Origin: an uncultured Chloroflexia bacterium
GTDB taxonomy: Bacteria; Chloroflexota; Limnocylindria; Limnocylindrales; CSP1-4
DNA length: 64,000 nucleotides
Reading direction: 5' to 3'
Assembly (NCBI GenBank): GCA_963788685.1
Contig: CAWBHP010000013.1
Location: 167,012-231,011, forward strand
This document shows positions 787 through 29,968 of this stretch, one piece after another. Positions within the stretch are counted from its first letter, which is position 1. Each line of letters starts with the position of its first letter. The position numbers and the translations under genes are program-made. Below the pieces are notes generated by a model. That model was not told the DNA's origin and made no database searches. It was given only the letters and a program-made list of their open reading frames with translations.

Positions 787-982
787 GCCCGCCCGGACTC
801 GTCCTCGCCGCTCGTCCTCCCTCGATAATCGCCTGGAGCGATGGATCCCAGCCCCACTCGCTCTGAATGGTCACGGCTGATCGGCGACAGCGATCATCGA
901 GCTGTGCGCTGGCTCGCGAGACGCTTGTAGCCACACTAAACGGCCCCGATTCATCGCTGCCTGTGATCACGGAGTTGGTTCG

Positions 983-1696: not shown

Positions 1697-1832
1697 TCCG
1701 CGGGCGCGCCGATCAGCCTCCTGCTGCAGCCGTGTTGTGCCGGGCGCGGTCATGCGCGCATTGAACTCGAGCCCGCTTATCTGCGGCTTTGCGGAACCCC
1801 GGCGGAGGCGGCGCGGGCGTAGGATCGCCGGG

Positions 1833-2387: not shown

Positions 2388-2411
2388 CGGCACCCGCGGT
2401 ACCCTGCGGCC

Positions 2412-2693
2412 ATGTGCCGCAGTATCAAACCCCTCCGCAGATCAGAATCCGATACCACGACCGGCGAGATCGAGGCCGCCGCTCTCCAGTTTGTTCGCAA
2501 GGTGAGCAACTACCGGGCGCCATCGGCTCGGAACGCCGAGGCGTTCGAGACGGCCGTCGCCGAGATTGCCAGCGCCTCGCGTCGGATGCTCGAGACGCTT
2601 GGCGTCGACATCGTCGAGGGTCCGAACCGCTGGACGCCCGGCTCCGGTTCGCCCCACCGCCACTCCGCCACCGCGCCCGAACACACCCACTGA
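2412..2693 (+). CDS. DUF2277-like small protein
   Basis: The protein starts MCRSIKPL and contains the motif AALQFVRKVSNYRAPSARNAEAFETAVAEIA. Confidence 0.5.
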   Translation: MCRSIKPLRRSESDTTTGEIEAAALQFVRKVSNYRAPSARNAEAFETAVAEIASASRRMLETLGVDIVEGPNRWTPGSGSPHRHSATAPEHTH

Positions 2694-2706
2694 TCGTCTC
2701 GATCGC

Positions 2707-3918
2707 ATGAGCGTCACGCTCGCGCCGTGGTGGGTCCGCCCGGGCCTCGAAGCGCGTGACGGCCGCCTCACGATCGCAGGTGAGGACGCGGAAGCGCTCG
2801 CCCGGCAGCACGGGACGCCGCTCTTCGTCTACGACCGGACGAGGTTCGCCGAGAACGCCCGCCGACTCGCCGCGGCGCTCGACCGCGCCGGGCTCCGACA
2901 TCGGCTCCGCTTCGCGCTCAAGGCGCACCCGGACCCGCGGGTCCTCGAGGTCCTTCGCGGTCTCGTCGGGATCGATGCCTGTTCGCCGGGCGAGGTGACC
3001 CGAGCCCTCGAGTGCGGGTTCGCGCCGGAGGAGATCAGTTTCACGGGCACGAACGTCTCCGAACGGGACCTCGACGTGCTCCTGGCCGTGCCGATCCACA
3101 TCAATCTCGACGCGATCAGCCAGGTCGAGCGGCTCGGACGGCGCGATCCGGGGCGGACCATCGGGCTGCGCATCAATCCGGCCGCGGGAGCCGGCTATCA
3201 CACGGGCCTCGCTTACAGCGGCGAACGTCCCACGAAATTCGGCATCTACGAGGAGCGCATCCCCGATGCGCTCGCCGCGGCCGCCCGCCACCGCCTCACG
3301 ATCGACACGATCCACTTCCATGCCGGATCGGGCTGGCTCGGGGCCGACGGGCTGGCCGCGTTCGAGACGGCGCTCGCCCGGGTCGCCGCGATTGCCGCCC
3401 GCCTCATCGCCGATGGCCATCCGATCGTCGAAGTCAACGTCGGTGGCGGACTCGGCGTGCCCGCCCGGTCGACGGAAGCTCCGGTCGACCTCGACGCCTA
3501 CGCCGCGGCCCTCGCCCGCCAACTCGGGCCGCTCGGCGTGGCCGTCGGCTGCGAGCCCGGCGACTACATCGCAAAGGATGCCGCGATCCTCCTCGGCGAG
3601 GTCGTGACCGTCGAGGAGCGCGGCGGGACGACGTTCGTCGGCCTCGACCTGGGCTGGAACGTGAACTGCTCGTACTTCATCTATCGCTACCTGCAGGAGA
3701 TCGTCGTCTGCCGGGCGGCCGATGCGCCCCGCACGGAGGTCGTCACGGTGGCCGGCCACATCAACGAGGCGGGCGACGTGTTCGCCGAGGACTACCCGAT
3801 CCAGCCGGTCATCGAGGGCGACATCGTCGCGCTCCTCAACGCCGGCGGCTACCACGAGGCGATGAGCTCGACTCATTGCCTTCGACCAATGGCCGGAGCC
3901 GTCTTCCTCGACCGCTAG
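2707..3918 (+). CDS. lysA: PLP-dependent group IV decarboxylase of the diaminopimelate/ornithine decarboxylase family (LysA-like), intact
   Basis: Motifs include PLFVYD, FALKAHPDP, HFHAGSG, CEPGDYIA and the C-terminal GGYHEAMSS. The 403-codon frame is uninterrupted. Confidence 0.8.
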   Translation: MSVTLAPWWVRPGLEARDGRLTIAGEDAEALARQHGTPLFVYDRTRFAENARRLAAALDRAGLRHRLRFALKAHPDPRVLEVLRGLVGIDACSPGEVTRALECGFAPEEISFTGTNVSERDLDVLLAVPIHINLDAISQVERLGRRDPGRTIGLRINPAAGAGYHTGLAYSGERPTKFGIYEERIPDALAAAARHRLTIDTIHFHAGSGWLGADGLAAFETALARVAAIAARLIADGHPIVEVNVGGGLGVPARSTEAPVDLDAYAAALARQLGPLGVAVGCEPGDYIAKDAAILLGEVVTVEERGGTTFVGLDLGWNVNCSYFIYRYLQEIVVCRAADAPRTEVVTVAGHINEAGDVFAEDYPIQPVIEGDIVALLNAGGYHEAMSSTHCLRPMAGAVFLDR

Positions 3919-4428
3919 TCGGAGACGCTCCCCAGATTTCCCCAGCTGCGGTGCCGGTCGACGACGACTCTGATGATCGGGCGACGCTCCAGCTGGTGGC
4001 TGGCGTATTGCGGATACCTGGCCCGGAGCGCGACCACGGCCACTCCGTGCTCCTCGGATGTCGTCGCCTCGTCGGGTTCAATGAGCTCCGCGAGGCCGTC
4101 CAGTCGGAGCCATCCGAGCGCGGACCAGTCCTCCGACCAGGCGTGGACCAGGAGCGACACGTGCAGGGTTGGCGGCGATGTCGCGAACTCGCTCCAGGTC
4201 GTGCGGATCGGCGACGCGCTTGGGCTTCTCGTCCAGCGGCGACCAGATCCGCAGTGGCACGTCGGCGGCGTCGAACGCGAAGCAGATCGGGACGAGTCGC
4301 GGCCGGCCATCGGGAGCCGTCGTCCCGAGGACCGCCGATCGCGCTGCGGCGAGGAAGACCAGTTCGGCCTGCGTCAATTCGTTGCCGGCGGCCATCGCCG
4401 AATGATGCATCACTAGACTGTCCCTCAT
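3915..4428 (-). CDS. PPOX-class F420-dependent oxidoreductase / pyridoxamine 5'-phosphate oxidase family protein; one frameshift at about 4150
   Basis: The motif GRPRLVPICFAFD...ANP lies in one frame and VSLLVHAWSEDWSALGWLRLDG in another. Confidence 0.55.
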
Positions 4429-5286
4429 GGCCGATCTCCTCCCGCCGACCCGCCACGTCACGACGACCCGGATCGTCGCCGTCCGCGGCTCCGAACTGGA
4501 ATACCGCGCCGACCGCGTCGTCGGCGAGGAGCCGCTCGAGATCCGGGCGGCCGGGCCCGGGCAGGAGCCGGTGGCGGTCGCGGTCACGATGCGCACGCCC
4601 GGGTTCGAGGACGAGCTCGCGGTCGGGTTCCTCCGGACCGAGGGGCTGATCGAGGGTCCGGAGGTCCTGAGGATCGAGCGCGGCGATCCGGCCGAGATGA
4701 GCCAGCCGGACGACCGGGTCACCGTCCGCCTGGCCCGGGCGTTCGACGCCTCCGTCGTCGCTGAGCGCCATTTCGTCGCGACCGCCTCGTGCGGAATCTG
4801 CGGCAAGGCCTCGCTCGACGAAGTCGCGATCCGCTCCGAGCCGCTCCCGCCCGGACCGGTCGTCGAGCGGCGCGTCGTCCTCGCTCTTCCGGATCTGCTT
4901 CGGGCCGCTCAGCGGGCGTTCGACGAGACGGGCGGGCTCCATGCCGCGGGCTGTTCACGCCGGCCGGCGAGTTGCTCGCCTTGCACGAAGACGTGGGGCG
5001 CCACAACGCGCTCGACAAGCTGGTCGGGTCGCAGGTCCTCGCCAAGGCGATGCCCCTCCACGAACGGATCCTCATGGTCAGCGGCCGGGTGAGCTTCGAG
5101 ATCATCCAGAAGGCCGCCGTGGCCGGCATCCCGATCGTCTGCGCGGTCTCGGCGCCGTCCGACCTGGCAGTCGAGGCGGCGGATCGGCTGGGCGTGACGC
5201 TCGTCGGCTTCCTGCGCGGCGACGGCTTCAACGTCTACGCCCACGACGAGCGGATCGACCTGCGGGACATCCTCGGCTTGGGCTGA
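4427..5286 (+). CDS. fdhD: formate dehydrogenase accessory sulfurtransferase FdhD; one frameshift at about 4945
   Basis: Motifs include SCGICGKASLD, TGGLHAAG (frameshift follows), LFTPAGELLALHEDVGRHNALDK and SFEIIQKAAVAGIPIV. Confidence 0.8.
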
Positions 5287-5365
5287 CGGGTGTAAGGTCA
5301 GGGCGACCCCCAGCGCCTCCCGCGCCGCTCCAACTGACACTGCCCTGCCACGAAGGAGCCTCCCG

Positions 5366-7221
5366 ATGACCGCGACCTCGAGCCGACCTTTCGCCCGCCG
5401 CTCCCTGCCGGCCACGATCGCCGGACTCCTCCTCGCCGCGGCGCTCGCCCCCGCCGCGACCTCCGCGGCGGCGATCCCCACGTTCGTCCCGATCGGGGCG
5501 GGCTATGCGGCCGACACGCTTGAGCAATTCGCCGCGGAGGCGGCGGCCATCGACGCGTCGGGAGAGGTGTCGATCCTCGTCCTGCCGATCACGTACGGCG
5601 TCGACCCGCTGTCGATGTCGAACGGCCTTCGGAACAAGAACTTGACCTTGGCCGACGGGCGTCGCGGCCAGATCGAGGATGCGTGCCTTGCGGTCATTCC
5701 CGCCGGCGAGACCTGCGACGTGGTGCTCGCACCGGTCCTTGTTCGGGACGACGCGTTCGACTCCGGCGAACGTCGGATCTCGTCACGCCGGGCCTGGACG
5801 GGATCTACGTCCTCGGTGGCGACCAGGTCGTCGCGATGCAGGTCGTCGCCAACACGCCGTTCGAGGACGCCCTCGCGGCCGCCCAGGCGGCGGGCGCCGT
5901 GACCAGCGGGAACAGCGCGGGTGCGGCGGTCGAGTCGGCCGACATGATCGCCGGCTACACCGGGGCGAACGGACCCGAGCAGGGATTCGAGCAGGGCGCC
6001 GTGGACCTGTGGCTCTATGGCGGCCCGACGGACGACACCCGCGGCCTCGTCTTTGGGCTCCAGAACGTCCTCCTCGACCAGCACGTCCTCCAGCGCGGCC
6101 GGATCGCCCGGCTCATCGCGACTGCCCACCTGGCCGGCACGGTCGGGATCGGGCTCGATGCCGACACGGCTGCCACGATCAAGAACGGGAGCACTGTCAC
6201 CGAGATCGGCGGGCTGTCGGCGGCATTCGTCGCGGACTCGCTGACGTTCCCGGCGTTTGCCCAGTACGACAGCTCCGGGACGCTCTCGATCCGCCGCGAG
6301 GCGACCCACGTTCTGGCACCCGGCGACGGCTACGACATCCCGTTGCGGCAACCGATTCCCGCGGGTTCGGCCGGGTCACTCCCGGCGCCGGACCTGACCG
6401 GACGCTCGTTCCCGAACCTCCTGCCCCCGCCGAACGCCGGCCCGCTCCTGCTGGCGGGCGGCTCGCCGTCGGGCGCGGTCCTCGATCGATTCGTCGTGGA
6501 TTCCGGCGGGTCCGGCAGCTCGATCGTCGTCCTTGCGGCCGGCTACGCCAAGCCGGAGGTCGCGACGAAGGACGCCAAGGCGTTCGCGGCTGCATTCTCG
6601 GCTCGTGGTGCGTCGGCGAGCTGGTTCCTCGTCAACGCGAAGACGAACGAGGCCCAGGTCGTGGCCGCCTTGAACGCTGCCGACGGCATCTTCCTGACGG
6701 CCCCGGATCCGTCGACAGTGCTGGGCTCGCTCGCGGCGAAGCCCCAGGTCACCGCCCAGATCGTCGGCCTCTGGGGCAACGGCCGGGCGCTGCTCGCGAA
6801 CGACGCGGCCGCGTCGGCGATCAGCGAGAACTTCACCACCGATCCGCGGCCGGCGGCCACGACGGGAGCGATCGAAGCCGCGGCGATCGCCGAGTTCCGG
6901 CCCGACAGCACGACCGTCGTCGAGGGCCTCGGCTGGATCAACGTCGCCGTCGAACCGGGCATCGTCTCGAATCGCCACTGGGGCCGGCTCTACAACATCG
7001 TCGCGGAGCCGTTCCCCGCGGAGGGGATCGCGATCGGGATCGATGCCGGCACCGCGGTCGAGTTCCGCCCGGAATGGTCCGCACCGCAGGTCGTCGGCGA
7101 CAGCGTCGCCGTCCTCCTCGACGGGCGGTACGCGTCGTTCGGCGTCGGGTCGAACGGTGCGCTGTCGGCGCACTGGGTGATCCTGGACACGTTAGTCGGC
7201 GGCGAGGAGGTCGCGCCCTAG
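5366..7221 (+). CDS. secreted protein with two tandem cyanophycinase-like (peptidase S51) domains; one frameshift at about 5785
   Basis: A signal peptide is followed by GDQV...SGNSAGAAVESADMIAG...LLDQHVLQRGRIARL...GIGLDADTA. A second S51-like repeat runs from about 6430 to 7200 (GIAIGIDAGTAVEF). Confidence 0.6.
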
Positions 7222-7430
7222 CCGCTGCTGTGTGCGCCCGCCGCGCCGTTACGCGACGCGTACCGACGGGCGGGCGAGGCCGGCGCCAAGCCCGCTTCAA
7301 GGCCCTCCAGCCGCCAACAGTTACGCGAGGCGTGCCATTTGGCGGTAAGAAGGGGTTCGACCGGCCTTGCGCGGTCGGCTGGCGGTCCCTTGGTACGGGA
7401 GGCGTAACGCAGACGCGAGTCGCGGGGCGT

Positions 7431-8510
7431 CAGCCGCCGCGTGGCCCACGGTTCTGGACGAACTGGAAGCCGAAGCGGCCCTTGATGCAGAGGTGGCCGT
7501 CGGTCACCGACGAATCGAGCGGCGAATCGACCTTCACGATCGTGTTGTCCTGGACGTGGAGATTGAGCGCGCAGCCGACGCCGCAATACGGGCAGATCGT
7601 CTCGGTCACCGTCTGGGCGCTCTCGTCCCAGGTCCCGGCGGCGCGCATGTCGAACTCGGACTTGAACATCAACGCGCCCGTCGGGCAGACGCCGATGCAG
7701 TTGCCGCAGTAGACGCACGCCGAATCGGGCAGCGGGACCGCCTCCTCCGTGGAGATGCGGGCGTCGAAGCCGCGCCCAGCGACGGCGATCGCGAACGTGT
7801 TCTGGGCGTCCTCGCCGCAGGCCTCGACGCACTTGTAGCAGAGGATGCACTTCGAGTAGTCGCGGACGTACAGGTTGTTGTCGACCATGACCGGCTGAGC
7901 GACGGTCTGGGCCTGCTGGGCGTCGGCGCCGGTCGGGGCGTGGTGGTGGCCCGGCTCGTGGGCGTCGCGTTCGCCGGCCTCGGCGGGCGGCGCCGATGGT
8001 CCGTAGCGAGCGGTGTCGGCGCCGTAGCGCTCGATGTAGCCGCGCGGCCGACGGCGCGGTCGAGAGATCGACCGACGAGCCGAGGAACTCGAGGACCATC
8101 TTCCGGCTGTGGCGGACCCGCTCCGAGTCCGTCGAGACGTCCATCCCGGCCTCGACCTTGCGCGAGCAGGCCGGGACGAGGACGCGCGAACCCGTGACCT
8201 CGACGACACAGACGCGGCAGACGTTGACCGGGGTCAGGTTGTCGAGATAGCAGAGGGTCGGCGTGTCGATCCCCTGGGCCCGACATGCGTCGAGGATCGT
8301 GGAGCCGACCGGCACCGAGACCGCGGCGCCGTCGATCGTGATCTCGACCTCGGGGCGGGGTGGGGCCGGTGGCGGGGCCGGCGGACGGCTCGGGCGGGCT
8401 GCCGGCTTGAGGATGATCTCGGTGAGCGGCTGGGCGCCCGGGGCCTCGTGTTCGTGCGGCGAACGCCGATCGGGGGCGGGATCGCGATCCATGCTCAGCC
8501 CGTCGCTCAC
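7431..8510 (-). CDS. fdsA: NAD-type formate dehydrogenase alpha subunit, N-terminal fragment only (2Fe-2S, two 4Fe-4S domains, and the CPYCGVGC cluster motif); frameshift at about 8050; ends [16 protein letters not shown]
   Basis: Motifs include [64 protein letters not shown] and [24 protein letters not shown]. No molybdopterin domain follows. Confidence 0.75.
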
Positions 8511-9658
8511 AGCGCCACCAATTCCGGCTGGCGCATCGCGCTCTCGATCGCCGATGACGCCGTCTGGCCCAGGCCGCAGATGCTCGCATCGCGCATCGCC
8601 TGGCCGATCTCGGCGAGGAGCGCGAGCTCGTCCGTCGCGGCTGCCGAGCGGGCGCCGCGGCGGCGAGCCGGGCGAGGAGCTCCTCCTGGCGGACCGTGCC
8701 GACCCGGCACGGGACGCACTGGCCGCATGACTCGTCGCGGAAGAACTGGGCGATCCGGCGGAGCGTGTCGACCATGTCGGCGGTCTCGTCGAAGGCCATG
8801 ACGACGCCGGAGCCGAGGGTCGCCCCGATCGCGCGCGTCGCCTCGAACGTGAGCGGCGTGTCGAGCGCGTCCGGGCCGACGAAAACGCCCGCCGCGCCGC
8901 CGAGGAGGACGGCCTTCAGGTTTCGGCCGCCAGGGACGCCGCCTGCCAGCTCCAGCAGCTCGCGAAGGGTCGCCCCGAATTCGACCTCGTAGACGCCCGG
9001 GTCTCGCGACGTGGCCGCTGACGCAGAAGAGCTTCGGGCCGGTCGAGCCCTCCGTGCCGATCGCCCGGAAGGCGTCGGGGCCGCCGTTGTCGGCGAGGAT
9101 GAGGAGGACGTTGACGAGCGTCTCGACGTTGTTGACGGCCGTCGGCTTGCCGAACAGGCCGACTTCGACGGGGAACGGCGGCTTGTTGCGCGGCTCGCCG
9201 CGCTTGCCCTCGATCGACTCGAAGAGCGCCGTCTCCTCGCCGCAGATGTAGGCGCCGGCGCCGCGCCGCAGCTCGATGTCGAGGTCGCCGAGGAGACCAG
9301 CGTCCTTGCTCGCGGCGATCGCGTTCGCGATCCGCGCCTCGGCGAGCGGGTACTCGCCGCGGATGTAGAGGTACGCCTTGTCGGCGCCGACCGCGAATGC
9401 CTCGATCGCCATCGCCTCGACGACCGCGAACGGATCGTGCTCCATCAGGACGCGGTCCTTGAACGTTCCCGGCTCCGACTCGTCCGCGTTGCAGACGAGG
9501 TAGTGCGGCTCAGCGGCCTGCGCGGCGACCGCCGCCCACTTGCGGCCGGTCGGGAACGCCGCGCCGCCGCGCCCGACGAGGCCCGAAGCCGTCACCTCCT
9601 CGATGACGGCCTGGGCCCCGATCTGTGCGGGCTCGCTCGAGGGCCCGAAAGCCGCCAC
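8507..9658 (-). CDS. fdsB: formate dehydrogenase beta subunit (NuoF-like, NAD/FMN-binding); at least three frameshifts
   Basis: Motifs include [44 protein letters not shown] and FCVSGHV. In other frames are [13 protein letters not shown] and [10 protein letters not shown]. Confidence 0.7.
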
Positions 9659-10371
9659 TGGCGCGGTAGGCGTCGAGGGACGTCGGGTCGACGACGCCGA
9701 CGCGGGCGAGCAGCCGGAGCCCGGGCCCGCCGGCCTGCGGGACCGACGCGCTCGCCAACGGTCGGAGACTCGGCCGGTGCCGGAGTGATGCCGTTCGTCG
9801 CATCAGCGAGGCGAGCCGAGACGCCGACCGCGTCGACCGGCGCGGCAACCTGGGTCAGCGGATTCTCACCGGCAACCGTGAACATCGCGGCCGGCGCGCG
9901 CTCGCACAGGCCCAGGCACGGCGACGGCAGCCAGGTCGACATGCCGTCGGCCATCGGCGCGCCGGCCGGACCAAGCGTTCGCTCGAGGTCGGCCGTCAGG
10001 CCGGCGGCGCCCGCGAGCCGGCAGGCGATGTCGTCGCAGACGTGGGCGACGACGGGTGGCCGCGCCTTCGTCGCGAACAGGGCGTAGAACGTGGCAACGC
10101 CGTAGGCCTCCGCCGGCGGGACGCTGAGGCGGCGGCAGACGTAGTTGAGCGCCGGCTGGCTGATCCAGCCGATCCGCGACTGGACGGCGTGGAGTGCCGG
10201 GATCAGGAGGTCTCGGCGGGAGCGCGCATCGTGTCCGCCGCGAGCGACATGGCCCTCGGTCTTCGGGTCGCGCGCTCCGCCACGCCAGGCCGATTCCGCC
10301 GGCCCGAGGACCGCGTCCACGGCTGCCCGCTCGGCCGGCGATGCGAGCGGCCCGATGACGTGGAGGTCCAT
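9592..10371 (-). CDS. fdsG: formate dehydrogenase gamma subunit (NuoE-like 2Fe-2S thioredoxin-like); C-terminal end uncertain
   Basis: The motif is [41 protein letters not shown]...VCDDIAC. Confidence 0.65.
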
Positions 10372-10399
10372 GGCCTGAGTGTAGCGATCCTGAGCCGTG

Positions 10400-10944
10400 T
10401 CAGCCAGTGACGCGGGCGACCCACGCTCGGGCGATCGGATGGAGGGCCGCGTAGGCGTCCCACGTGCCGCGGGCCCAGCCGTCGACCGCCGCGCGATGAT
10501 CGACCAGGTCAGTTGCGGCCCGGACGGCGGCGATCGTCAGCGGCCCGCGCGTCTTGGGGAGAGGCGGCTTCGTCGAGCTCCGGCCGGCGGCTGAGCCACC
10601 GCTGGATCGCGGCATTGAGCTCCTCCTCGCGGCCACGGTGCTCCATCGCGATGCAGAGGCCGGTCAGATGCGCTGCCAACGAGGTCGCGGAGGCGCAGTA
10701 GCGCTCAGCGTGCTGCAGGCAGTAGGTATCGACGACCATCCGGCGCCGGGCGGCGAAACGGATGTCGGCGTACTCGCGCGCCGACTCGTCGTCGAAGATT
10801 GCCTGACAGCCCTCGACGCCGCCCTCGACGACGAGGCCGCAGCCGGAACACGCGTCCCGTCGATCGGCGGCGCGCTGACCTGGCTCGGCCGCGATCGGGG
10901 TGCCGGGACGGGAGCGCCGCCGGCGGTCGGACGTCTTCGGCCAT
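10400..10944 (-). CDS. hypothetical cysteine-containing protein between the fdhA 3' end and fdsG; apparent frameshift
   Basis: Fragments read ...DACSGCGLVVEGG...MVVDTYCLQHAERYCASATSLAAHLTGLCIAMEH... and ...DLVDHRAAVDGWARGTWDAYAALHPIARAWV*. No family was recognised. Confidence 0.25.
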
Positions 10945-12856
10945 TCAGCCGGCGCCGGCGGCCACCGGCAGCTTCTCGATGCGGATCGCCGTGGCCTTGA
11001 ATTCGGCGGTGCCGGACTTCGGGTCGGTCGCGTCGATCGTCAGGAGGTTCGTCGCGACCTCGTCCTGGAAGTGGAGCGTCATGAACGTCAGGCCCGGTCG
11101 GAGCGACGGGTCGATCCGGATCGGCGTCTCGACCTGGCCGCGCCGGGAGATCACGCTGACCCGCTCGCCTTCGGTCAGGCCGAGCCGCTCGGCGTCCTCG
11201 GGGCTGATGTCGAGCGACTCGCCCCGCCGCAGCGGCGAGGTGTAGCCGCCGGTCTGGACGCCGGTGTTGTACGAGTCGAGCCGGCGGCCCGTCGTCAGCC
11301 GGATCGGGAAGTCGTCGTCGAGCTTGTCGACCGGCGGGTCGTGGTCGACCGCGACGAACGGCACCCGATTGCCCGGGACCGGGTCCTCCCAGAGCCGGCT
11401 GTGGAGGAACAGCTCGCCCGGGTGGTCCTCGTCGTAGCACGGCCACTGGAGCCCGCCGAGCTCCTCGAGGCGCTTGTAGGACATGCCGGCGTGGACCGGC
11501 GACAGCGCTCGGACCTCGTTCCAGGTGTCCTCGGCGGTCTGCCAGCCGAACTCCTGGCCCATCCGTCGAGCGAGCTCGGCGATGATCCACAGGTCGTCGC
11601 GGGCCTCGCCGGGCGGGTCGAGGGCCTTGCGGACGCGCTGGACGCGGCGCTCGGAGTTGGTGACCGTGCCCTCTGCCTCGGCCCAGGCGGCGGACGCGGG
11701 CAGGACGACGTCGGCGAGCTCGGCGGTCGCGGTCAGGAAGAGGTCCTGGACGACCATGAAGTCGAGGCCCTCGAGGAGGCGTCGGGCGCGAGCCTGGTCG
11801 GCCTCCGACTGGAGCGGGTTCTCGCCGATGACGTACACGGCCGTCAGGTCGCCGCGCTCCATCGCGTCGAACATGCCCGACAGGTGCCAGCCGCGCTTCG
11901 GCGGCACGGTGACGCCCCAGTGCTTGTCGAATTTCGCCCGGAGCTCGTCGTTCTCGACGTGCTGGAAACCGGGCAGCCGATCCGGGAGGGCGCCCATGTC
12001 GCCGCCGCCCTGGACGTTGTTCTGGCCACGGAGCGGGTTGACGCCGCTCCCGTAGCGACCGACATGGCCGGTGAGCAGGACGAGGTCGATCAGGGCGAGC
12101 ACGTTGTCGACGGCGTTGTGGTGCTCGGTGATGCCGAGGGTCCAGCAGATCATCGCCTTGGGAGCGGTCGCGAAGGCGTGGGCGAGCTCGCGGATCGCGT
12201 CGGCTGGGACGCCCGTCTCGCGCTCGGCGTAGTCGAGGGTGTAGCTCTCGACCTTCGCCTTGTAGGCGTCGAAGCCGTCGGTCGCGCGGTCGATGAACTC
12301 CTTGTTCTCGAGCCCCGCGGCGATGATCTCGCGGCCGATCGCGTTGGCGAGGGCAATGTCGCTGCCGACGTCGAGGCCCATCCAGACGTCGGCCCATTCG
12401 GCCGACGACGTTCGGCGCGGGTCGATCGCGTAGAGCCGGGCGCCCTTGCGGACGCCGCGGAGGAGGTGATGGAAGAAGATCGGGTGCGTCTCGCGGGCGT
12501 TGCTGCCCCACAGGACGATCAGGTCCGTCTCTTCGGCCTCACGGTATGAACTTGTGCCGCCACCGGCACCGAACACGGTCGCCAGACCGGCGACGCTTGG
12601 GGCGTGTCAGGTGCGGTTGCAGCTGTCGATGTTGTTGCTGCCCAGCACGGCCCGGCTGAACTTCTGCGCCGCGAAATTGACCTCGTTGGTCGCCTTCGAG
12701 CACGAGAAGACGCCGAAGGTCGTGGGCCCGTGGGCGGCCTTCGCCGCCTGGAAGCTGGCCACGACCTTGTCGAGTGCCTCGTCCCAGCTCGCGGGGCGCA
12801 GCGTCGGCGCCCTTCGAGTCGCGAACGAGTGGCTGGGTCAGTCGAACGTAGTTCAT
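10945..12856 (-). CDS. fdhA: formate dehydrogenase alpha subunit, molybdopterin (bis-MGD) catalytic portion. It is a selenoprotein with an in-frame UGA at 12607..12609, lacks the N-terminal Fe-S domains, and has a frameshift at about 12808.
   Basis: RLTQPLVRDSKG...SWDEALDKV...SCSKATNEVNFAAQKFSRAVLGSNNIDSCNRT-U-HAPSVAGL matches the E. coli FdhF region around Sec140. GVNPLRGQNNVQGGGDMGALPD is also present. Confidence 0.85.
12578..12594 (-). promoter_or_regulatory. SECIS-like hairpin (GUCGCC-GGUCU-GGCGAC) starting 11 nt 3' of the UGA
   Basis: It is a perfect 6-bp stem with a GGUCU apical loop, at the same position and with the same loop as the E. coli fdhF SECIS. Confidence 0.5.
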
Positions 12857-13004
12857 CGGCACGGGTGTGCCTCCTGCGGAACGACGACATACAGAGTCTA
12901 ACGCGAGGGCTGTCGTGCCTGGTGCGCCATCGCGGCGTTGCCACCTGCGCGGTTTCGAAGGGCCTAGACTCCCGATCTGCACCGAAAGCGATGGGAGGGT
13001 TCGC

Positions 13005-13428
13005 GTGGATACACCTCAGAAGCGACGCTGGATCGGGCTGATCGTCATCGTCATCGTCGCCGGCGTCGCCGCGGCCTGCGCGGGCGCACAGCGCAAGCCC
13101 CTCGGCCTCGGCCGCAGCGGTGAGCCCCGCGGCCCCATCCGCGGCGACCGGCTCGGACGTCGCTCGCACGCTCGACGGGCCGGCCGAGGCCAAGGCCGGA
13201 TCGGCGATCGTCGTGACGTGGACCGGCGAGGTCCGGAACGGCGACTACGTGACCATCGTGCCAAGCGGCGGTTCGTACAAGGCAGATGACCCGTACGTGA
13301 ACATCTACGACACCACGTCCGCCACGCTCAAGGCACCTGCGGCGGCAGGGGAGTACGAGATCTGGTGGATCGAGGGCGACACGATCGACGTAGTCCTGGC
13401 TCGTCATCCGATAACGATCACGCCATAG
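13005..13428 (+). CDS. small putative lipoprotein or secreted protein; frameshift at about 13085
   Basis: A GTG start gives VDTPQKRRWIGLIVIVIVAGVAAACAG (lipobox-like), then ...SDVARTLDGPAEAKAGSAIVVTWTGEVRNGDYVTIVPSGG... follows in the +1 frame. Confidence 0.4.
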
Positions 13429-13561
13429 CGTTTCGCCGGTAGCGTTCGGATAGCGTTCCGCTGGCGCGCTGCTGTCGATCGGGAGGGCCTGGCCCCAACT
13501 CGCGGCCGCTGGCGGTGGCGTCGAGACCCCGCAGGGGGCGGTAGTGGGCGAACGCGAACCG

Positions 13562-14500
13562 TCACATCGCCGAAACGCGCCTCGGGCTGATGATCCGCGC
13601 CACAGCGGCTACGGCATCGTCGAGGGTCTCGGGCAACCGAGTGGCTCCGATCGCATCGGATATGTCATCGGCCAACGGACCGCCGACGGCGCAGATCAGC
13701 GGCCTGGATGTTGTCCGAAGGGCCTCGGCGACGACCGCAGCCTCGGCGACGTCGGAGTCTGTGACGACCGCCACGACCGCCACGGGTGCGCCGGTCTCGC
13801 GGACGGTACGCAGCCAGCTGTCGAGCGGCACGTTGGCGCCCAGGTAGAGCACGTCGAGCCCGATGCGCCTGGCGGCGACCGCGAAGGCAAAGGCGCCGAT
13901 CTCATGTTGACCCGCCGGCGGCAGCCCGACGATCACCTTCGGGATCCGATCACTGCGCCCGGCAGCGTCGAAGAATCGCGCGAGCCTGCGCCGGACCGTT
14001 TCGCTGGCGGCGTGCTCGACGGCGACGTCGATCTCGCCAGCCGACCACGCGTCGCCGATGCCTCGCAGCGCCGGGAACACGATGTCGTCCATCGCGGACT
14101 CGAAGCGCTGGGCGGCGAAAGACTCGTCGAGGATCTGCTCCATGGCCGGCACATCGAACTGATGGGCCGCCACGAGGAACGCATCGACCGCGAGCTCAGC
14201 CGATCGCGACGACGCGCCGCGATCGTCCGAGACCGGAGCCGCGCCCGGCGCGACATCCCACCCACCCACGGCAGCGTCTGCCCCCACCGCGAGCACGTGC
14301 TCGGCGGCCTGGCTCGGGCGCCAGCCCTCGTTCTCCACAAGACGGCGCATCGCCATCAGCCGTCCAATGGATTCGTCGTCGTACAGGCGATAGCCAGCCG
14401 CGGTCCGGCTCGGCCGAACGACCCCGTAGCGACGCTCCCAGACGCGAACCGTTGGGATGGTGAGGCCGGCTCGTGCGGCCGCTTCCTTGATCGTGTACAT
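13562..14500 (-). CDS. CarH/LitR-type light-responsive MerR-family regulator with a B12 (AdoCbl)-binding domain
   Basis: The MerR helix-turn-helix is MYTIKEAAARAGLTIPTVRVWERRYGVV. The Wx9EH motif is AWSAGEIDVAVEH. The Rossmann-like B12 domain has GQHEIG...SWL...VGGP. Confidence 0.8.
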   Translation of the reverse strand: MYTIKEAAARAGLTIPTVRVWERRYGVVRPSRTAAGYRLYDDESIGRLMAMRRLVENEGWRPSQAAEHVLAVGADAAVGGWDVAPGAAPVSDDRGASSRSAELAVDAFLVAAHQFDVPAMEQILDESFAAQRFESAMDDIVFPALRGIGDAWSAGEIDVAVEHAASETVRRRLARFFDAAGRSDRIPKVIVGLPPAGQHEIGAFAFAVAARRIGLDVLYLGANVPLDSWLRTVRETGAPVAVVAVVTDSDVAEAAVVAEALRTTSRPLICAVGGPLADDISDAIGATRLPETLDDAVAAVARIISPRRVSAM

Positions 14501-14557
14501 CGCGGCGCTACGTTGCGTGGAGCGACGTGATGGCCCAGATGGGCCGGCCTGGGCGCG

Positions 14558-15388
14558 TCACGGTCGCAGCGTCCCGGCGAACACCTGCCATGCAAGCAGC
14601 GTCTTCGCGATGAGGCTGAGCACCATGTACGCCCGTTCACCGAAGACGTAGTCGCGCCATCGTCCGATTCGGCGGTACTGGAGGACCATGTTGATCGCGA
14701 AGACATTGAATGAGATGAACAGCGAGATGTAGATCGCGATCACAAAGCCCGGAATGGGGGCCGCGCCTGGCGCGGTGATCCCGGTCACCAGCGCGACCCC
14801 GATGACGATCCACGGCACGGCGCCGGCGACGCAGCCGAACACGTAGTGGAGCCACTGGACCCGTTGTCGTCCCTCATTCGCGATCTCCATGCTCCATCCG
14901 AACAGGATCATCACCGCATTCACGCCGAAGATCGCAATGAGCGTCCCGATCTCGCGGATGCCGGTCAGGCTGGCGATGACCACGATCATGACGCTCGACG
15001 AGAACGCGTACTCGATCCACCGCGCCGGATTCTGACCGCGCGCCAGGTTTCGTTCGTACCAGGCGCGGAACGGGACCGCGACCGAGAGATGGGCGAGGGC
15101 GCTAAGCAGAAAGAAGAGCGCGACCGCCGGTCCGATCGGCAGGTCGAAGAGCGGCTGCTGGGCCTCGATGAGAGTCCGAGTTGAGGGCTCGAACCTCAGA
15201 TAGCTGCTGACGACTGGGGAGCTGACGACCGGATCCTTCGCAACGCTCAGCGCCAGCATTGCCAGGAACTGGGTGCCGTGCAGGGCCGCGAGCGCCAGGT
15301 TCCATCGGGACAGGAGCGCGCCACGCCCGCTGTCGATCGGGACTGGCAGGGGGATAGGCGCCGTGATCGCGGACATCGGTATCTCCAT
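14558..15388 (-). CDS. heliorhodopsin
   Basis: RWIEYAFSSSVMIVVIASLTGI..IAIFGVNAVMILFGW and GERAYMVLSLIAKTLLAWQVFAGTLRP are near-identical to heliorhodopsin 48C12 motifs, including the retinal-binding lysine in SLIAK. Confidence 0.88.
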   Translation of the reverse strand: MEIPMSAITAPIPLPVPIDSGRGALLSRWNLALAALHGTQFLAMLALSVAKDPVVSSPVVSSYLRFEPSTRTLIEAQQPLFDLPIGPAVALFFLLSALAHLSVAVPFRAWYERNLARGQNPARWIEYAFSSSVMIVVIASLTGIREIGTLIAIFGVNAVMILFGWSMEIANEGRQRVQWLHYVFGCVAGAVPWIVIGVALVTGITAPGAAPIPGFVIAIYISLFISFNVFAINMVLQYRRIGRWRDYVFGERAYMVLSLIAKTLLAWQVFAGTLRP

Positions 15389-15409
15389 GGGCCGATTGCG
15401 AGATTCGTC

Positions 15410-15463
15410 TGTTCATGGTTTGTCGAATATATCACGGGCCAAAGATTTGACAAACCATGAACA
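15410..15463. promoter_or_regulatory. perfect 15-bp inverted repeat (TGTTCATGGTTTGTC, 24-nt spacer, GACAAACCATGAACA) in the AT-rich divergent promoter; candidate operator
   Basis: The repeat is read directly from the sequence. It lies between the heliorhodopsin start and the DUF4397 gene start. Confidence 0.5.
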
Positions 15464-15558
15464 TCGCTGCTACCTTAGGCCAACCCTCATCAAAGGGTGA
15501 ACAACAACAGGCGTCGAGGCAACAGTCCGGACGCCTCAATCCAGAAGGAGCCAGCACC

Positions 15559-16431
15559 GTGAACCGTCTTCTCGTTCGAGTCACCCGCGTCGTCGCCGGC
15601 GCCGCGTTGGTGCTCACCATCGCCGCCCCGGTGAGTGCGGCAGACACGGCACAGGTCCGTGTCCTGCATGCCTCGCCCGACGCACCGGCCGTCGACGTCT
15701 ATCTCGACGACACAATCGTCGACGCCCTGACGAACGTCCCGTTCGGGACCAGTTCGGACTACCTCGCGATCCCCGCCGGGGACCACAACGTGAAGGTCTA
15801 CGCCACCGGCACGACGAGCGCGCCCGTCATTGACGCGGACGTCACCGTCGCGACCGGCAAGAAGTACACGATCGCCGCCACCAACGCGGTTGCCGCGATC
15901 GAGGCCCAAGTGCTCGAGGACACCCCGGCGCCGGACTGCGATACCGCCCAGGTGCGGGTCGTCCACTTCAGTGCCGACGCTCCCGCGATCGACGTCGCCC
16001 CGGCCGGCGCCGCGCCCGCCGATGCGGTCGTCAAGAACCTCGCCTACCCGAACGCGTCTGACTACCTGGCACTGCCGGGTGGCACGTACGACCTCGAGGT
16101 TCGGCTGGCCGGAACGACGACGGTCGCGCTGGCCCTGCCGGGCGTCGCGATCGAGGACTGCAACGCCTACAGCGTGTTCGCGATCGGCTCCGCGGCCGGG
16201 ACCCCGGTCGGCGGAAAGGCCCTCCAGGTCGTCGCGGCCCTCGACGGCGCGGCCGAGGCCGGGCCGAAGCCGGGGCGGGGCGACCCCGCCCGCGACCGAC
16301 ACCGCCGTTTCGGGCTCAGGCCCGTCGGCGCTCAGTGCCGGTTCCGTGATCGGGTTCGTCGTCGTGGCCGTCGCCGCCATCGGCACCGTCCTTGCCCTCT
16401 CGTTCCGGCGCGCCGGGCACCGAGGGCCTAG
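15559..16431 (+). CDS. DUF4397 repeat protein with a signal peptide and a C-terminal transmembrane anchor; frameshift at about 16280, end uncertain
   Basis: The GTG start is preceded by GAAGGAG. The repeats are VRVLHASPDAPAVDVYLDD.. and VRVVHFSADAPAIDV. The anchor VIGFVVVAVAAIGTVLALSF is in the +1 frame. Confidence 0.55.
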   Translation: MNRLLVRVTRVVAGAALVLTIAAPVSAADTAQVRVLHASPDAPAVDVYLDDTIVDALTNVPFGTSSDYLAIPAGDHNVKVYATGTTSAPVIDADVTVATGKKYTIAATNAVAAIEAQVLEDTPAPDCDTAQVRVVHFSADAPAIDVAPAGAAPADAVVKNLAYPNASDYLALPGGTYDLEVRLAGTTTVALALPGVAIEDCNAYSVFAIGSAAGTPVGGKALQVVAALDGAAEAGPKPGRGDPARDRHRRFGLRPVGAQCRFRDRVRRRGRRRHRHRPCPLVPARRAPRA

Positions 16432-16643
16432 GGGACTCCCGTACTCGACCTTCCCAGCGCGAGCCGGTCGCCCCTCCGGCCGGCTCTCGCCTCCTCGGGA
16501 AGGCGACGGGTCTGGCGGTCGAGCGACCTCGCACGCTCGTCGACGAGCTGCTCGAGCTGGCGGTCGTCCCCAGCTTCTCCCGGATCGGGCCGGCCGTCCG
16601 CCGGCGGCTGTTCGGTTGGGCGGCCCGCCGCCCGAGGCTGCGC

Positions 16644-17536
16644 ATGCCGGGCGGACCGTCCTGATCACCGGGCCGACGTCCGGGCTGGGCCGCGCGGCCG
16701 CCGGCGGCTCGCCGGGCTCGGCGCGCGGGTCGTCCTCGTCGGCCGCGAGCGAGGCCGGTTGGCCGCGGTCCGCGACGAGCTCGTCGCGGCCACGGCGAGG
16801 ACCGCTTCCCGATCGTCGTGGCCGACATGGCGTCGCTCGCCTCGGTCCGGGCGGCCGTGACGCGGATCCTGGACGACCGAGCCGCGGCTCGACGTGGTCA
16901 TCGACAACGCGGGCGCGATCCTCCCGAAGCGAACCGAGGGACCCGACGGGATCGAAGCGACGTTCGCGACGATGGTCGTCGGCCCGTTCGTCCTGGTCTC
17001 CGGCCTGCTGCCGCTGCTCCGTCGGAGCGGCGGCGCCCGGGTCATCGCGGTGACATCGGGCGGGCAGTACGCCCAGCGGCTCGACCTCGACGACTTGCAG
17101 CTCGCCGGCGGGCCGTTCGACGGGACGCGTGCGTACGCCAGGTCGAAGCGCGCCCAGGTCGGCCTCGTCCGTGAGTGGGCTCGGCGGCTCGGGAGGTCCG
17201 GAGTCACGCTTCGCATCGATGCATCCCGGTTGGGCCGACACGCCCGGACTCGCGGAGGCCCTGCCGGCCTTCCACGACCTCATGCGTCCGCTGCTCCGAA
17301 CGCCCGACCAGGGCGTAGACACGCTCGTCTGGCTCGCCGCCTCAACCACGAGCCACGGGGCGAATGGCCGCCTGTACCTCGATCGTCGGCCGCGCCCGTT
17401 CGACCGAGTCCCTGCCACGCGGCTCTCCGCGACTGATCGGCGGCGCCTCTGGGACAGCGTCGTCGCCCTCAGCGGGGCGCCCGACCCGGCCCCCGACCCG
17501 GACCTCATCCCAACCAGTGACCGGAGATCGACATGA
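16644..17536 (+). CDS. short-chain dehydrogenase/reductase (SDR) family oxidoreductase; about four frameshifts; possible N-terminal extension
   Basis: Motifs include TVLITGPTSGLGRAAA, VIDNAGAILP, YARSKRAQV and MHPGWADTPGL. The stop overlaps the next ATG (ATGA). Confidence 0.6.
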
Positions 17537-17994
17537 CCACGCTCACGAACGGATCGAGACACCCTGCCCATCGACGAGGCGTTCGCCTACGTCGCCGACT
17601 TCGCCAACTCCCAGGAGTGGGACCCGGGCGTCGCCACCGCCGAACGGCTCGACCAGGGCCCGGTCGGCGTCGGGTGCGCGCTACCGGCTCGGCGTCCGGA
17701 TGGGCGGCCGGGTCGCCCCGATGGAGTACCGGATCCCGGTCTTCGAGCCGCCGACGCGGGTCGTCCTGCCGGTGCCGGGTCCGGCGTGACGGCGGTCGAC
17801 GACATCCGCTTCGAGCGCCCGGCGACGCGGGACGCGCGTCGACTACACCGCCGACATCAAGCTCGGCGGCCTCCTCGGCCTCGTCCAGCCGTTCCTCGGC
17901 GGCGCCTTCGCGCAAGCTCGGCCGGAACGCGGCCGACGGCATGCAGCGGACGCTGCGACGGCGCGCGCGGCCGGCGACCGAGGCGGACGCGTCG
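17533..17994 (+). CDS. SRPBCC (polyketide cyclase/dehydrase-like) family protein; several frameshifts
   Basis: Motifs include ETLPIDEAFAYVADFANSQEWDPGVATAERL, RYRLGVRMGGRVAPMEYRIPVFEPPTRVVL and DIKLGGLLGLVQPFLGGAF. Confidence 0.5.
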
Positions 17995-19274
17995 ATGAAG
18001 GTCGCCATCGTCGGGGCCGGCGTCAGCGGCCTGACCGCCGCGTACGCGCTGACGCGAGCCACGAGATCCGCCTGTTCGACGCGGAGCCGTCGTCGGGCGG
18101 CCACGTCAAGACGGTCGCGGTGGAGACGGCGCCGGGCCGGTCGCGGTCGACACGGGCTTCATCGTCTACAACGAGCACACCTACCCGACGTTCATCCGGC
18201 TGCTCGCCGAGCTCGGCGTCGCGACCCAGCCGAGCGACATGTCGCTCGGGTCGGCCTGCCGGGCCTGCGGCGTCGAGTTCAGCTCGCGCGGCATCGGCGG
18301 CTACTTCGCCCAGCCGACGCGCCGTCGCTCGCCCGGGCCAGTGGCGGATGATCGCCGACATCCTGCGGTTCTACCGCGAGGCCCGAGCGACGCTCGACGC
18401 ACCGGCGCCCTCGACCGGGACGCTGGGCGACTTCCTCGACGACGGCGGCTATCGGCGCGGGCTTCCGCGACCACTTCCTCGTCCCGATCACGTCCGCCGT
18501 GTGGTCGACGGGCGCGGCCCGGATCCTCGACTTCCCGATCGACTACCTGCTCCGGTTCCTGGACCACCACGGCCTCATCGGCTACGGCAACGCGCCTCCA
18601 GTGGCGGACGATCCAGGGCGGCTCGATGCGCTACGTGGACCGGATCGTCGCAGCGCCTGCCGCCTGGCACGATCCGAGCCGGCAGCCCGGTCGTCGACGT
18701 CGTCGCGCCGCGTGGCGGGCGTCACGGTCCGGACCGAGGACGGCACGCCGGAGCGCGTTCGACGCGGTGGTCATGGCCACGCATGCCGACCAGGCCCTGG
18801 CCGTCCTCCACGACGCCGACGGCTGCGAACATGCCGCGCTGGGCGGCTTCGACTACTCGACCAACCAGGTCGTCCTCCACACGGACGAGCGCGTCCTGCC
18901 ACGCCGACTCGGCGCGCCGCGCGTCGTGGAACGTGGACCAGGAGGATTGCCGCGCGGCCGGGCGAGGCGCTCACGATGACGTACCACATGAACCGGCTGC
19001 AGTCGCTGGCCGGCCCGATCGCAGTACTCCGTGTCGGTCAACCCCGGCGACCGCGTCCGACCCGACCGGGTCATCGTGGAGCGAGCCATGAGCCATCCGA
19101 TGTACACGTTCCGGACGCTCGAGGCGCAGGCGGCCCTGCGCGGCCTGCAGGGCTGGCGTCGGCACGTAGTTCGCCGGGGCGCACCTCGGCTACGGCTTCC
19201 ACGAGGACGGCTGCCGGTCCGGGTTGGAGGTCGCCGACCTCGATCCGGCCGCGGCCGCGGAGCGAGCCGCATGA
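17995..19274 (+). CDS. FAD/NAD(P)-binding amine-oxidase-like oxidoreductase (UfaD-like desaturase); many frameshifts
   Basis: Motifs include [77 protein letters not shown] and [14 protein letters not shown]. Confidence 0.6.
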
Positions 19275-20020
19275 GGTCGCACCTGCTGGAGGGCATCGTC
19301 CGCCACCGGCGCGTCCGGCCGTTCACGTACGCGCTGGAGCACGGCGTGTTCTACGTCGCGCTCGACCTCGACGAGCTCGACGAGGTGCCGCGGCGGCTTC
19401 GGTTCGTCAGCCGGAACCGCCGGAACCTGCTGTCGTTCCGCGACGACGATCACCTGGTCCCGCCGGCCGCGCGACGTGCGCGCGTCGGTCCTGCGAACAG
19501 CTGCGGGCCGAGGGCGTGGATCCCGACGGCTGGCAGGTCACGCTGGTCACGAACCTCCGGTGCCTCGGCTACGTGTTCAACCCGGCCAGCTTCTTCCTCT
19601 GCCGCGATCGCGCCGGCGAGCTGCGGGTCGTCATCGTCGAGGTCCACAACACGCACGGCGAGCGGCACCTGTACACGCTCCGCGCGCGGACGACGGCGGC
19701 CGGCGGCTTCGTCGACTCGATGGACAAGGCGTTCTACGTCTCGCCGTTCATCGAGATGGCCGGGCGCTACACGGTCCGGGTCCGCGACGAGCCGGCCGCG
19801 TCTGCGGATCACGATCAACGAAGCCCAGGACGGACGGCCTCCTGCTGCACACGAGCCTCGACCTGACCCGCCGACGCCTGTCCGACCGGATGGTCGCTGC
19901 GGATGCTCCTGCGCCACCCGCTGGTCAGCCACAGGACGATCGGGCATGATCCACTGGCACGCCCTGCGGCTGTGGCTGCGCGGGGCCCGATTCCACCGCC
20001 ATGGGGAGGCGACACGATGA
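19271..20020 (+). CDS. DUF1365 family protein (UfaO-like); several frameshifts
   Basis: Motifs include [78 protein letters not shown] and [12 protein letters not shown]. Confidence 0.6.
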
Positions 20021-21283
20021 CCACGCCGACGACGTCCAGCCGCTCGCGCCGCGCGCTCGGCCGATCCCGATCCTGCTCGCCGGCTCGCGCTGGCGCATCG
20101 CGACCGGCGGCGGCGGACGCGATCGCGGTCGGGCACCTCGCGGTCGTCCTGCCGGACGGCAGCCGCCGGACGTTCGGCGATCGCGGCCGCCGACCGGCCG
20201 CGCCGAGATCCACATCCACGACACGCGAGCGCTGACCCGGCTCCTGTCGACGGCGAGACCGGTGGCGGCGAGGCCTACATGGACGGCCTGTGGTCCAGCC
20301 CGGACCTCGCCGGCCTCCTGCGCTGGGCCGCCCTCAACCGCGAGGCGCTGGCGCTGTCGGCCGGCTGGTTCCGGGCGCCGGCCCAGCTCCGGCGGACGAT
20401 CGCCCACCGCGCTCCGACGGAACACGAAGGGCCAGAGCCGCCGGAACATCGCGGCCCACTACGACCTCGGGCAACGACTTCTACCGGCCGTTCCTCGACG
20501 AGACGATGACCTACTCGAGCGCGGTGTTCGCCTCGCCCGACCAGTCGCTCGCGGACGCCCAGCGCAACAAGTACCGGCGCATGGCCGACGGCGCCGGCCT
20601 GCGTCGCCGGCCAGCACGTCCTCGAGATCGGGACCGGCTGGGGCGGGTTCGCCCTCTACGCGGCGGGCGAGCTCGGCTGCCGCGTGACGTCGGTCACGAT
20701 CTCGCAGGAGCAGCACGCCCTGGCCCGCGAGCGGGTCCGCGCGGCCGGGCTGGAGCGACCGGGTCGACATCCAGCTGCGCGACTACCGCGACATCGACGG
20801 GCACGTACGACGCGATCGTCTCGATCGAGATGCTCGAGGCGGTCGGCGCCGAGTACTTCGCGACGTTCTTCGAGGTCTGCGATCGCGGCGCTCGTGCCGG
20901 GCGGCCGGCTGAGCCTCCAGTCATCACGTTCCCCGATGCCGCCTACGAGCGCCAGCTCCGCGGCGCGAACTGGATCCAGACGTACATCTTCCCGGGCGGC
21001 CTGTGCCCGTCGCTGGCCGTCATCGAGCGGGCGACCGCGCGACACGCGGCTGCTCGTCACGCGACGTCACCGACATCGCCGCCGGACTACGTCCGGACGC
21101 TGCGTGCGTGGCGGACGCGGTTCATGGAGCCGGCTCGGCGACGGTGCGCGCGATGGGCTTCGACGACCGCTTCATCCGGATGTGGGAGTACTACCTCGCG
21201 CTGAGCGAGGCGGGCTTCGCGACCGGGATCAGCCAGGACCTCCAGATCGTGCTTCGAGAAGCGCCGCGGCAATCGCTGGTTAG
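20017..21283 (+). CDS. cyclopropane-fatty-acyl-phospholipid synthase family SAM-dependent methyltransferase (UfaM-like); many frameshifts; 3' end approximate
   Basis: Motifs include [108 protein letters not shown] and [22 protein letters not shown]. Confidence 0.65.
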
Positions 21284-21339
21284 TTCCAGCATCGGTCGCC
21301 GGCGAGCCTTCTCGGCGGACTCTGGCGGCCTTCGCCCCC

Positions 21340-22026: not shown

Positions 22027-22029
22027 ACG

Positions 22030-23386: not shown

Positions 23387-23395
23387 GGAGGATCG

Positions 23396-27267: not shown

Positions 27268-27268
27268 C

Positions 27269-27303: not shown

Positions 27304-27329
27304 GAGGTGGGAGCAGGGAGCTGGGAGGT

Positions 27330-29954: not shown

Positions 29955-29968
29955 ACGAGCGGCGCGCC

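Follow-up and report, generated by a model that had tools for sequence, protein, structure and literature searches.

The 64,000-nucleotide stretch of DNA analysed here (the window; positions 167,012 to 231,011 of the forward strand of contig CAWBHP010000013.1, assembly GCA_963788685.1, with a G+C content of 71%) comes from an uncultured Chloroflexia bacterium (GTDB Chloroflexota; Limnocylindria; Limnocylindrales; CSP1-4). Its minus strand carries fdhA, a gene for the catalytic subunit of a formate dehydrogenase (FDH), in which an in-frame TGA codon is followed by a short hairpin. An original prediction took the codon to specify selenocysteine (Sec) and the hairpin to be a Sec insertion sequence (SECIS). 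The features of fdhA are these:

10945..12862, minus strand: fdhA, predicted Sec-containing catalytic subunit (read-through translation; Pfam, NCBIfam and PDB matches)
12607..12609, minus strand: predicted Sec codon UGA of fdhA (codon 83 from the ATG; aligns with U140 of Escherichia coli FdhF)
12578..12594, minus strand: predicted SECIS apical hairpin GUCGCC-GGUCU-GGCGAC (folds in both contexts; invariant; loop offset as in E. coli fdhF)
12802..12803, minus strand: extra base in fdhA (GAC-G-CTG, against GAC-CTG or GAG-CTG in the aligned relatives L001, L002 and L003)

The window was compared with 83 related loci (two JGI metagenome contigs, one ENA contig and 80 species-representative genomes), giving a codon alignment of 84 sequences. 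The genome matches are metagenome-assembled genomes labelled Chloroflexota, 'Ca. Limnocylindria' or Limnocylindrales, at 80-95% amino-acid identity; the few that carry other taxon labels are probably binning errors. One clean relative, L001, served as the guide for the window genes (tblastn), and L002 and L003 are further aligned relatives.

The UGA codon of fdhA and the hairpin downstream

After removal of the extra base, fdhA encodes a product of about 636-638 amino acids (aa), starting at a GTG (12862) or an ATG (12856), with GGAGG at 12874..12870, and ending at a TGA stop (10947..10945); the protein is 97% identical to the read-through protein of L001. The Pfam matches are PF00384 Molybdopterin (229 bits) and PF01568 Molydop_binding (92 bits), with no other domain, and the NCBIfam model TIGR01591 (Fdh-alpha) matches over its positions 141-672 with 549.8 bits.

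Around the codon in question the minus strand reads ATC GAC AGC TGC AAC CGC ACC TGA CAC GCC CCA AGC GTC GCC GGT CTG GCG ACC GTG, which with read-through translates as IDSCNRT-U-HAPSVAGLAT; the predicted Sec-site peptide is ...AVLGSNNIDSCNRT-U-HAPSVAGLATVFGAGGGTSSYR. In a pairwise alignment with E. coli FdhF (translated from NC_000913), U83 stands opposite U140, as the original prediction had proposed, and both the catalytic histidine (H84 opposite H141) and the formate-site arginine (R276 opposite R333) are kept. Alignments with solved FDH structures in the PDB likewise place the UGA on their Cys/Sec site. The next nucleotide is C (UGAC), as in E. coli fdhF, and every one of the 83 related loci carries TGA at this position. 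In nearly all of these relatives the fdhA frame is intact, and in all the TGA stands at codon 83-88; two have one additional in-frame stop, and for a few the extracted fdhA sequence did not reach the terminal stop. Among ordinary stops of the lineage, too, TGA is the most frequent (14 of 20 genes in L001 and 17 of 20 in L003, or 31 of 40), and it ends fdhA itself; the genetic code is therefore standard, and recoding would be specific to this site.

Gene callers split fdhA at the codon. Among 5.8 billion proteins, each of the best 120 matches is a 542-547 aa open reading frame (ORF) called just 3' of the TGA, the N-terminal piece of 82-84 aa being treated as a separate gene, and the database names are 'YjgC-like molybdopterin oxidoreductase' or 'formate dehydrogenase major subunit' (P0001-P0120). 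In the window, the 82-aa piece before the TGA and the 543-aa piece after it are contiguous parts of a single Molybdopterin domain. On the evidence of these alignments, we regard the UGA at 12609..12607 as a genuine and strongly conserved site of predicted Sec incorporation.

The hairpin consists of a stem strand GTCGCC (12594..12589), a loop GGTCT (12588..12584) and a second arm GGCGAC (12583..12578), and begins after a spacer of 12 nt (12606..12595), one more than first counted. From the TGA to the first loop G the distance is 18 nt, which E. coli fdhF (read from NC_000913) matches exactly, as can be seen by setting the two side by side (TGA CACGGCCCATCGGTTGCA GGTCTG against TGA CACGCCCCAAGCGTCGCC GGTCTG, the E. 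coli sequence being TGA-CACGGCCCATCGGTTGCA-GGTCTG). Among the perfect hairpins of 6 bp with a 5-nt loop in the window, it alone has a GGTCT loop. The original prediction would have been refuted by a hairpin that does not fold within the mRNA; here it is part of the minimum-energy structure whether 60 nt or 181 nt of context are folded.

All 17 nt of the hairpin are invariant across the 83 related loci. Codons V88, A89, G90, L91 and A92 show zero synonymous variation in the 84 sequences, and these five consecutive codons account for five of only seven invariant codons among the 400 of at least fourfold degeneracy in fdhA (1.75%), a run whose chance is about 1e-9 per position if independence is assumed. 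The six codons for VAGLAT form the window of lowest synonymous entropy in the gene, whereas the codons that flank the hairpin vary freely (H = 1.0-1.6 at A85, P86, S87 and V94). Such a complete lack of synonymous change argues strongly for selection on the RNA itself, and it is by this conservation, of the TGA, of the 17 nt and of the synonymous sites, that the hairpin stands beyond chance. The evidence supports an fdhF-type SECIS, the predicted target of the elongation factor SelB.

Genes for Sec decoding and the frameshifts of the assembly

The original prediction had also placed a selD-selC-selA-selB-mobA set some 10 kb away, at 22030..27267, and these coordinates are correct:

22017..23074, minus strand: selD, selenophosphate synthetase, Cys form (five frame segments; TIGR00476)
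23288..23386, plus strand: selC, tRNA-Sec, anticodon UCA, CCA encoded (ARAGORN; Rfam RF01852)
23396..24771, plus strand: selA, Sec synthase (aligned with L001 over its whole length at 77-100% identity; TIGR00474 on the last fragment)
24773..26631, plus strand: selB, Sec-specific elongation factor (TIGR00475, 289.3 bits, above cut-off, on the N-terminal fragment)
26643..27264, plus strand: mobA-like molybdenum cofactor guanylyltransferase (TIGR02665, NF002741)

SelD, like SelA, aligns with its L001 counterpart over the full length at 77-100% identity, and both cysteines of its DCGGCAAK motif are encoded by TGC, in agreement with the Cys form recognised at the outset. SelB has the EF-Tu-like domains and a C-terminal winged helix with a predicted role in SECIS binding; its C-terminal fragment carries PF09107 SelB-wing_3 (46 bits) and PF25461. 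For MobA, TIGR02665 and NF002741 fall below their cut-offs since only a fragment was scored. A search for tRNA-Sec, suggested as a check on the set, was positive with both programs: RF01852 scores 70.6 bits against a threshold of 47 and is the sole Rfam match above threshold in the window, and the tRNA-Sec is the single tRNA that ARAGORN reports in the 64 kb. It is collinear with the tRNA-Sec of the relatives and free of indels.

In the tRNA-Sec of this lineage (23290..23382, plus strand) the acceptor stem has seven standard pairs and then, at position 8, a G.G mismatch that is conserved; the fifth T-stem pair covaries (G:U or G:C), and ARAGORN sets the length at 97 or 99 nt according to the complementarity of the flanks.

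In most relatives selD adjoins fdhA. In the window a block at about 14500..21350, which matches positions 2700..8429 of L003, lies between fdhA and the selD end; it is absent in L001 and L002, where selD and its neighbouring glycosyltransferase family 2 (GT2) gene adjoin fdhA. The block encodes a cyclopropane-fatty-acid-synthase-like methyltransferase, DUF1365, an FAD amine oxidase, a polyketide cyclase, a short-chain dehydrogenase/reductase and DUF4397. The GT2 gene (21352..22017, minus strand) overlaps or adjoins the end of selD (with a 4-nt overlap in L001) and is kept in some relatives; it has no evident link to selenium.

The Sec-decoding set is thus complete in content, as the original prediction stated, but as written selD, selA, selB and mobA each carry between one and seven frameshifts. 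Across the first 30.8 kb of the window (1..30840), which the frameshift survey covered, at least 20 single-base indels relative to L001 break conserved ORFs. There are about seven frame switches in selA (some eight segments), four each in selD and nuoEF, two each in the amidohydrolase and DPBB genes, one each in mobA, fdhD and the DUF5946, iron-sulfur (FeS) subunit and PNPOx genes, and at least one in selB; intact genes include an Orn/DAP decarboxylase, a methyltransferase and a lactamase_B. In fdhA the extra base at 12802/12803 shifts the frame 18 codons after the ATG and puts the start and the remainder of the gene in different frames; as written, a stop codon interrupts the Sec frame 76 codons before the TGA, and the first start codon gives only 51 aa. 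Two other causes considered for fdhA, a frameshift (real or programmed) and a pseudogene, were rejected: the domain that seems to be missing reflects a conserved split of the gene (see below), and the upstream stop is due to a single extra base found in the window alone.

The fdh operon and the apparently split alpha subunit

Four further genes accompany fdhA:

10403..10944, minus strand: DUF5946 gene (two frames; tblastn against L001; PF19371 on both fragments)
8510..10371, minus strand: nuoEF, fused NuoE-NuoF-like diaphorase subunit (five frame segments; nuoF_fam, 279.6 bits, on one fragment)
7430..8510, minus strand: FeS subunit, 360 aa, equivalent to the N-terminal third of FdsA (two frame segments; Pfam, tblastn)
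4424..5283, plus strand: fdhD, FDH sulfurtransferase/maturation factor (one frameshift; NF001943 FdhD)

The order fdhA-nuoEF-FeS-fdhD recurs across the 83 loci and is usually preceded by mobA-selB-selA-selC and selD. The DUF5946 gene between fdhA and nuoEF is restricted to the closest relatives (6 of the 63 loci with enough flanking sequence); in L001 it occupies 11633..12175. NuoEF combines a 2Fe-2S thioredoxin-like domain, an FMN/NADH-binding 51K domain, SLBB and NADH_4Fe-4S (PF01257, PF01512 and PF10589 on window fragments), and the FeS subunit combines Fer2_4 and two Fer4 domains with a Molybdop_Fe4S4 domain at its C-terminal end (7433..8041). Directly upstream of fdhA and on the same strand (13562..14500, minus) is a gene for a MerR-family regulator with B12-binding_2 and B12-binding domains (CarH/LitR-like, possibly light- or cobalamin-responsive), and the same is found in L003.

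FdhA starts at the equivalent of FdhF residue ~57. A Pfam scan found no Fe4S4 domain (PF04879) in it, and in the pairwise alignment residues C8, C11, C15, C42 and Lys44 of the 4Fe-4S site of FdhF have no counterpart. In the PDB alignments FdhA matches FdhF-type chains from about residue 70-79 and FdsA over residues 322-931, and the FeS ortholog of L001 corresponds to residues 18-306 of FdsA (9wxb_B and 6tg9_A), a stretch that contains the CPYCGVGC motif. Given that the two proteins between them cover FdsA, they appear to be one FdsA-type alpha subunit in two pieces. The split point lies just after the Fe4S4 domain, the C-terminal half is encoded first, and nuoEF separates the two genes. When 1.84 billion representative proteins were searched with the C-terminal fragment of the FeS protein, nearly all matches were fragments from the same lineage.

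We could not find a twin-arginine (Tat) signal at the N-terminus of FdhA, and the enzyme is therefore taken to be cytoplasmic. The best reading of the domains and alignments is a cytoplasmic, NAD(H)-linked, Sec-containing molybdenum (Mo) or tungsten (W) FDH that resembles FdsABG and Fdh1AB; its specificity for NAD is suggested by the NuoF-like module only, and the assembly of the subunits is likewise predicted. The Sec-dependent FDH module of the original prediction is supported in its Sec enzyme and its Sec genes, but the enzyme does not appear to be a stand-alone FdhF; FdhA would form the catalytic half of an NAD-linked alpha subunit that is of the FdsA type but split in two.

We put at about even the chances that in 'Ca. 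Limnocylindria' the alpha subunit is truly split, with a permuted gene order, and that the FS0 (Molybdop_Fe4S4) cluster is supplied to FdhA in trans by the 360-aa protein. If so, this would be a natural two-piece Mo/W FDH with a bearing on how a cofactor-proximal cluster is assembled across a subunit interface, and the split might relate to having the slow decoding of the UGA come early, at codon 83, within a short gene. Nothing specific on a split FdsA arrangement, on DUF5946 or on an FDH of the Limnocylindria was found in the literature, coverage of which was incomplete.

Competing explanations and known systems

Very probably, the UGA is decoded as Sec and provides the active-site metal ligand of a cytoplasmic NAD(H)-linked FDH with a Mo/W bis-pyranopterin guanine dinucleotide (bisPGD) cofactor and a split FdsABG-like alpha subunit, the frameshifts in the window being assembly errors. 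Several observations weigh against this reading. As written, fdhA and all of the sel protein genes are frameshifted, which leaves the module without demonstrable function in this organism, and one may ask whether it is a decaying relic in which the frameshifts are real, the selenoprotein is not made, and the UGA and SECIS are ancestral. The frame switches are indeed many and are densest in the sel genes, with 13 in 5.2 kb compared with seven in the 5.4-kb fdh operon. However, the unrelated amidohydrolase, PNPOx, DPBB and GT2 genes, as well as fdhD, are also hit; not one nonsense codon occurs in 4633 aligned codons, apart from the Sec TGA; identity is 80-100% on either side of every switch, which would not be expected of drifting pseudogenes; and most of the indels are an additional G or C beside an identical base, a pattern typical of read errors. 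Given the absence of nonsense codons, the high identity on both sides and the unrelated genes affected, the frameshifts in the fdhA, sel and fds genes are most likely errors of an unpolished, probably long-read assembly, with a small residual chance that some of the indels are real, and we consider a relic unlikely.

The other points that weigh against our reading concern the hairpin, which could be a mere by-product of coding for V-A-G-L-A-T and not an element that recruits SelB. Four of its six stem pairs are dictated by these amino acids, through first and second codon positions. Its fold is no more stable than that of shuffled sequence (z = -0.82 and +0.38), and stability was dropped as an argument since these scores are not significant. 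There are 67 perfect hairpins of 6 bp with a 5-nt loop per strand in the window, so that the hairpin by itself is not beyond chance. The stem is without any variation in the 83 loci, compensatory covariation is hence unavailable, and synonymous-site entropy was used in its place. The predicted lower stem (GACACG/CGUGUU) is not conserved, G36 being replaced by C in about a quarter of the loci, and the Rfam scan matched no bacterial SECIS family, tRNA-Sec alone being reported. A bulged U in the upper stem matters for SelB binding in E. coli. That residue (U17) is absent here, where the stem is six contiguous Watson-Crick pairs; the likeness in the GGUCU loop that the original prediction had claimed is borne out, and the loop offset agrees as well. 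Against a by-product stand the five wobble positions, invariant next to freely varying flanks, and a loop whose sequence and offset are identical to those of the experimentally defined E. coli fdhF element, and we regard a hairpin shaped by coding alone as very improbable. It is less probable still that TGC (Cys) was miscalled as TGA, or that the TGA truly ends the first of two genes: the assembly is error-prone and gene callers do split fdhA here, but the TGA recurs in 83 of 83 independent assemblies, the errors in the window are indels and not substitutions, and the two pieces are contiguous in one domain. The least credible alternative, to which we give almost no weight, is a genome-wide reassignment of UGA in the lineage, for example to Trp or Gly. 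The in-frame TGA alone speaks for it, whereas TGA ends most of the called genes, fdhA among them, and a dedicated tRNA-Sec, SelA and SelB are present.

The decoding of the UGA as Sec can be pictured by analogy with E. coli. From the sequence features, the homology and the conservation described above, we infer both that Sec is incorporated and that SelB binds the hairpin. SelD would make selenophosphate, SelA would convert Ser-tRNA-Sec to Sec-tRNA-Sec, and SelB-GTP carrying Sec-tRNA-Sec would bind the mRNA hairpin through its C-terminal winged helix; the loop G-U, 18-19 nt after the UGA, would tether SelB to the ribosome while the UGA is in the A site. The cofactor would receive its guanine dinucleotide form from MobA and would be sulfurated and inserted by FdhD. 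In the assembled enzyme, FdhA would carry the Sec and the bisPGD domains, the separate 360-aa FeS protein the 2Fe-2S, 4Fe-4S and cofactor-adjacent clusters, and the fused NuoE-NuoF the FMN, with NAD+ bound there.

The module is of a textbook kind in a new host, and it leaves knowledge of Sec decoding unchanged. It would mean that Sec is in use, apparently for a single enzyme, an NAD-linked FDH, in an abundant and uncultured class of Chloroflexota from soil and freshwater. For annotation, the 'YjgC-like 543-aa oxidoreductases' should be joined with the upstream 82-aa ORF and marked as selenoproteins, and the assembly of the window needs polishing before claims about gene integrity are made. As a structural curiosity the split alpha subunit is modest, and the residual interest lies mostly in this FdsA architecture and in the systematic mis-annotation of fdhA at the UGA in the databases (the best 120 entries).

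FdhA is the most widespread bacterial selenoprotein, present in 67 of 75 Sec-using genomes; its gene is often clustered with sel genes, above all where it is the sole selenoprotein, and in that case SelD is usually of the Cys form (Zhang, Romero and Gladyshev 2006, PMC1794560). The locus resembles the fdhA-selABC(D) clusters of such single-selenoprotein bacteria (PMC1794560) in that fdhA is accompanied by the Sec-decoding genes and a Cys-form SelD; it differs from them in the 8.5-kb block (21.3-13.5 kb) that lies between, and in its host, an uncultured class of Chloroflexota.

With E. coli FdhF (PDB 1aa6) the window FdhA shares 40% identity over 630 residues, the equivalents of Sec140, His141 and Arg333, and the Molybdopterin and Molydop_binding domains, and with the fdhF SECIS the UGA followed by C and the GGUCU loop at the same offset. 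In contrast, the window FdhA has no counterpart to residues 1 to ~56 of FdhF, where the four Cys and Lys44 that belong to the 4Fe-4S site are found; the hairpin here has six perfect GC-rich pairs without a bulged U, and its stem begins 12 nt after the UGA, not 11; and the partner of FdhF is hydrogenase 3, whereas here it would be the NuoEF diaphorase.

Also close are the NAD+-dependent FdsABG enzymes (Rhodobacter capsulatus, 6tg9, and the related 9wxb; Cupriavidus necator), with whose FdsA the FeS protein and FdhA align, and which share the NuoE-like and NuoF-like modules, an FdhD (the FdsC equivalent) and a predicted cytoplasmic location without a Tat signal. FdsA, however, is one polypeptide with an active-site Cys, compared with two polypeptides, the C-terminal half encoded first, and a predicted Sec in the window, where in addition NuoE and NuoF are fused and a DUF5946 gene stands in the operon, as in the closest relatives. 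The tungsten enzyme Fdh1AB of Methylobacterium extorquens (7e5z, 7vw6) has the same NuoE-NuoF fusion as its beta subunit, and its alpha subunit matches with E = 1.7e-122, but that subunit is a single chain of 989-995 aa with Cys in place of Sec.

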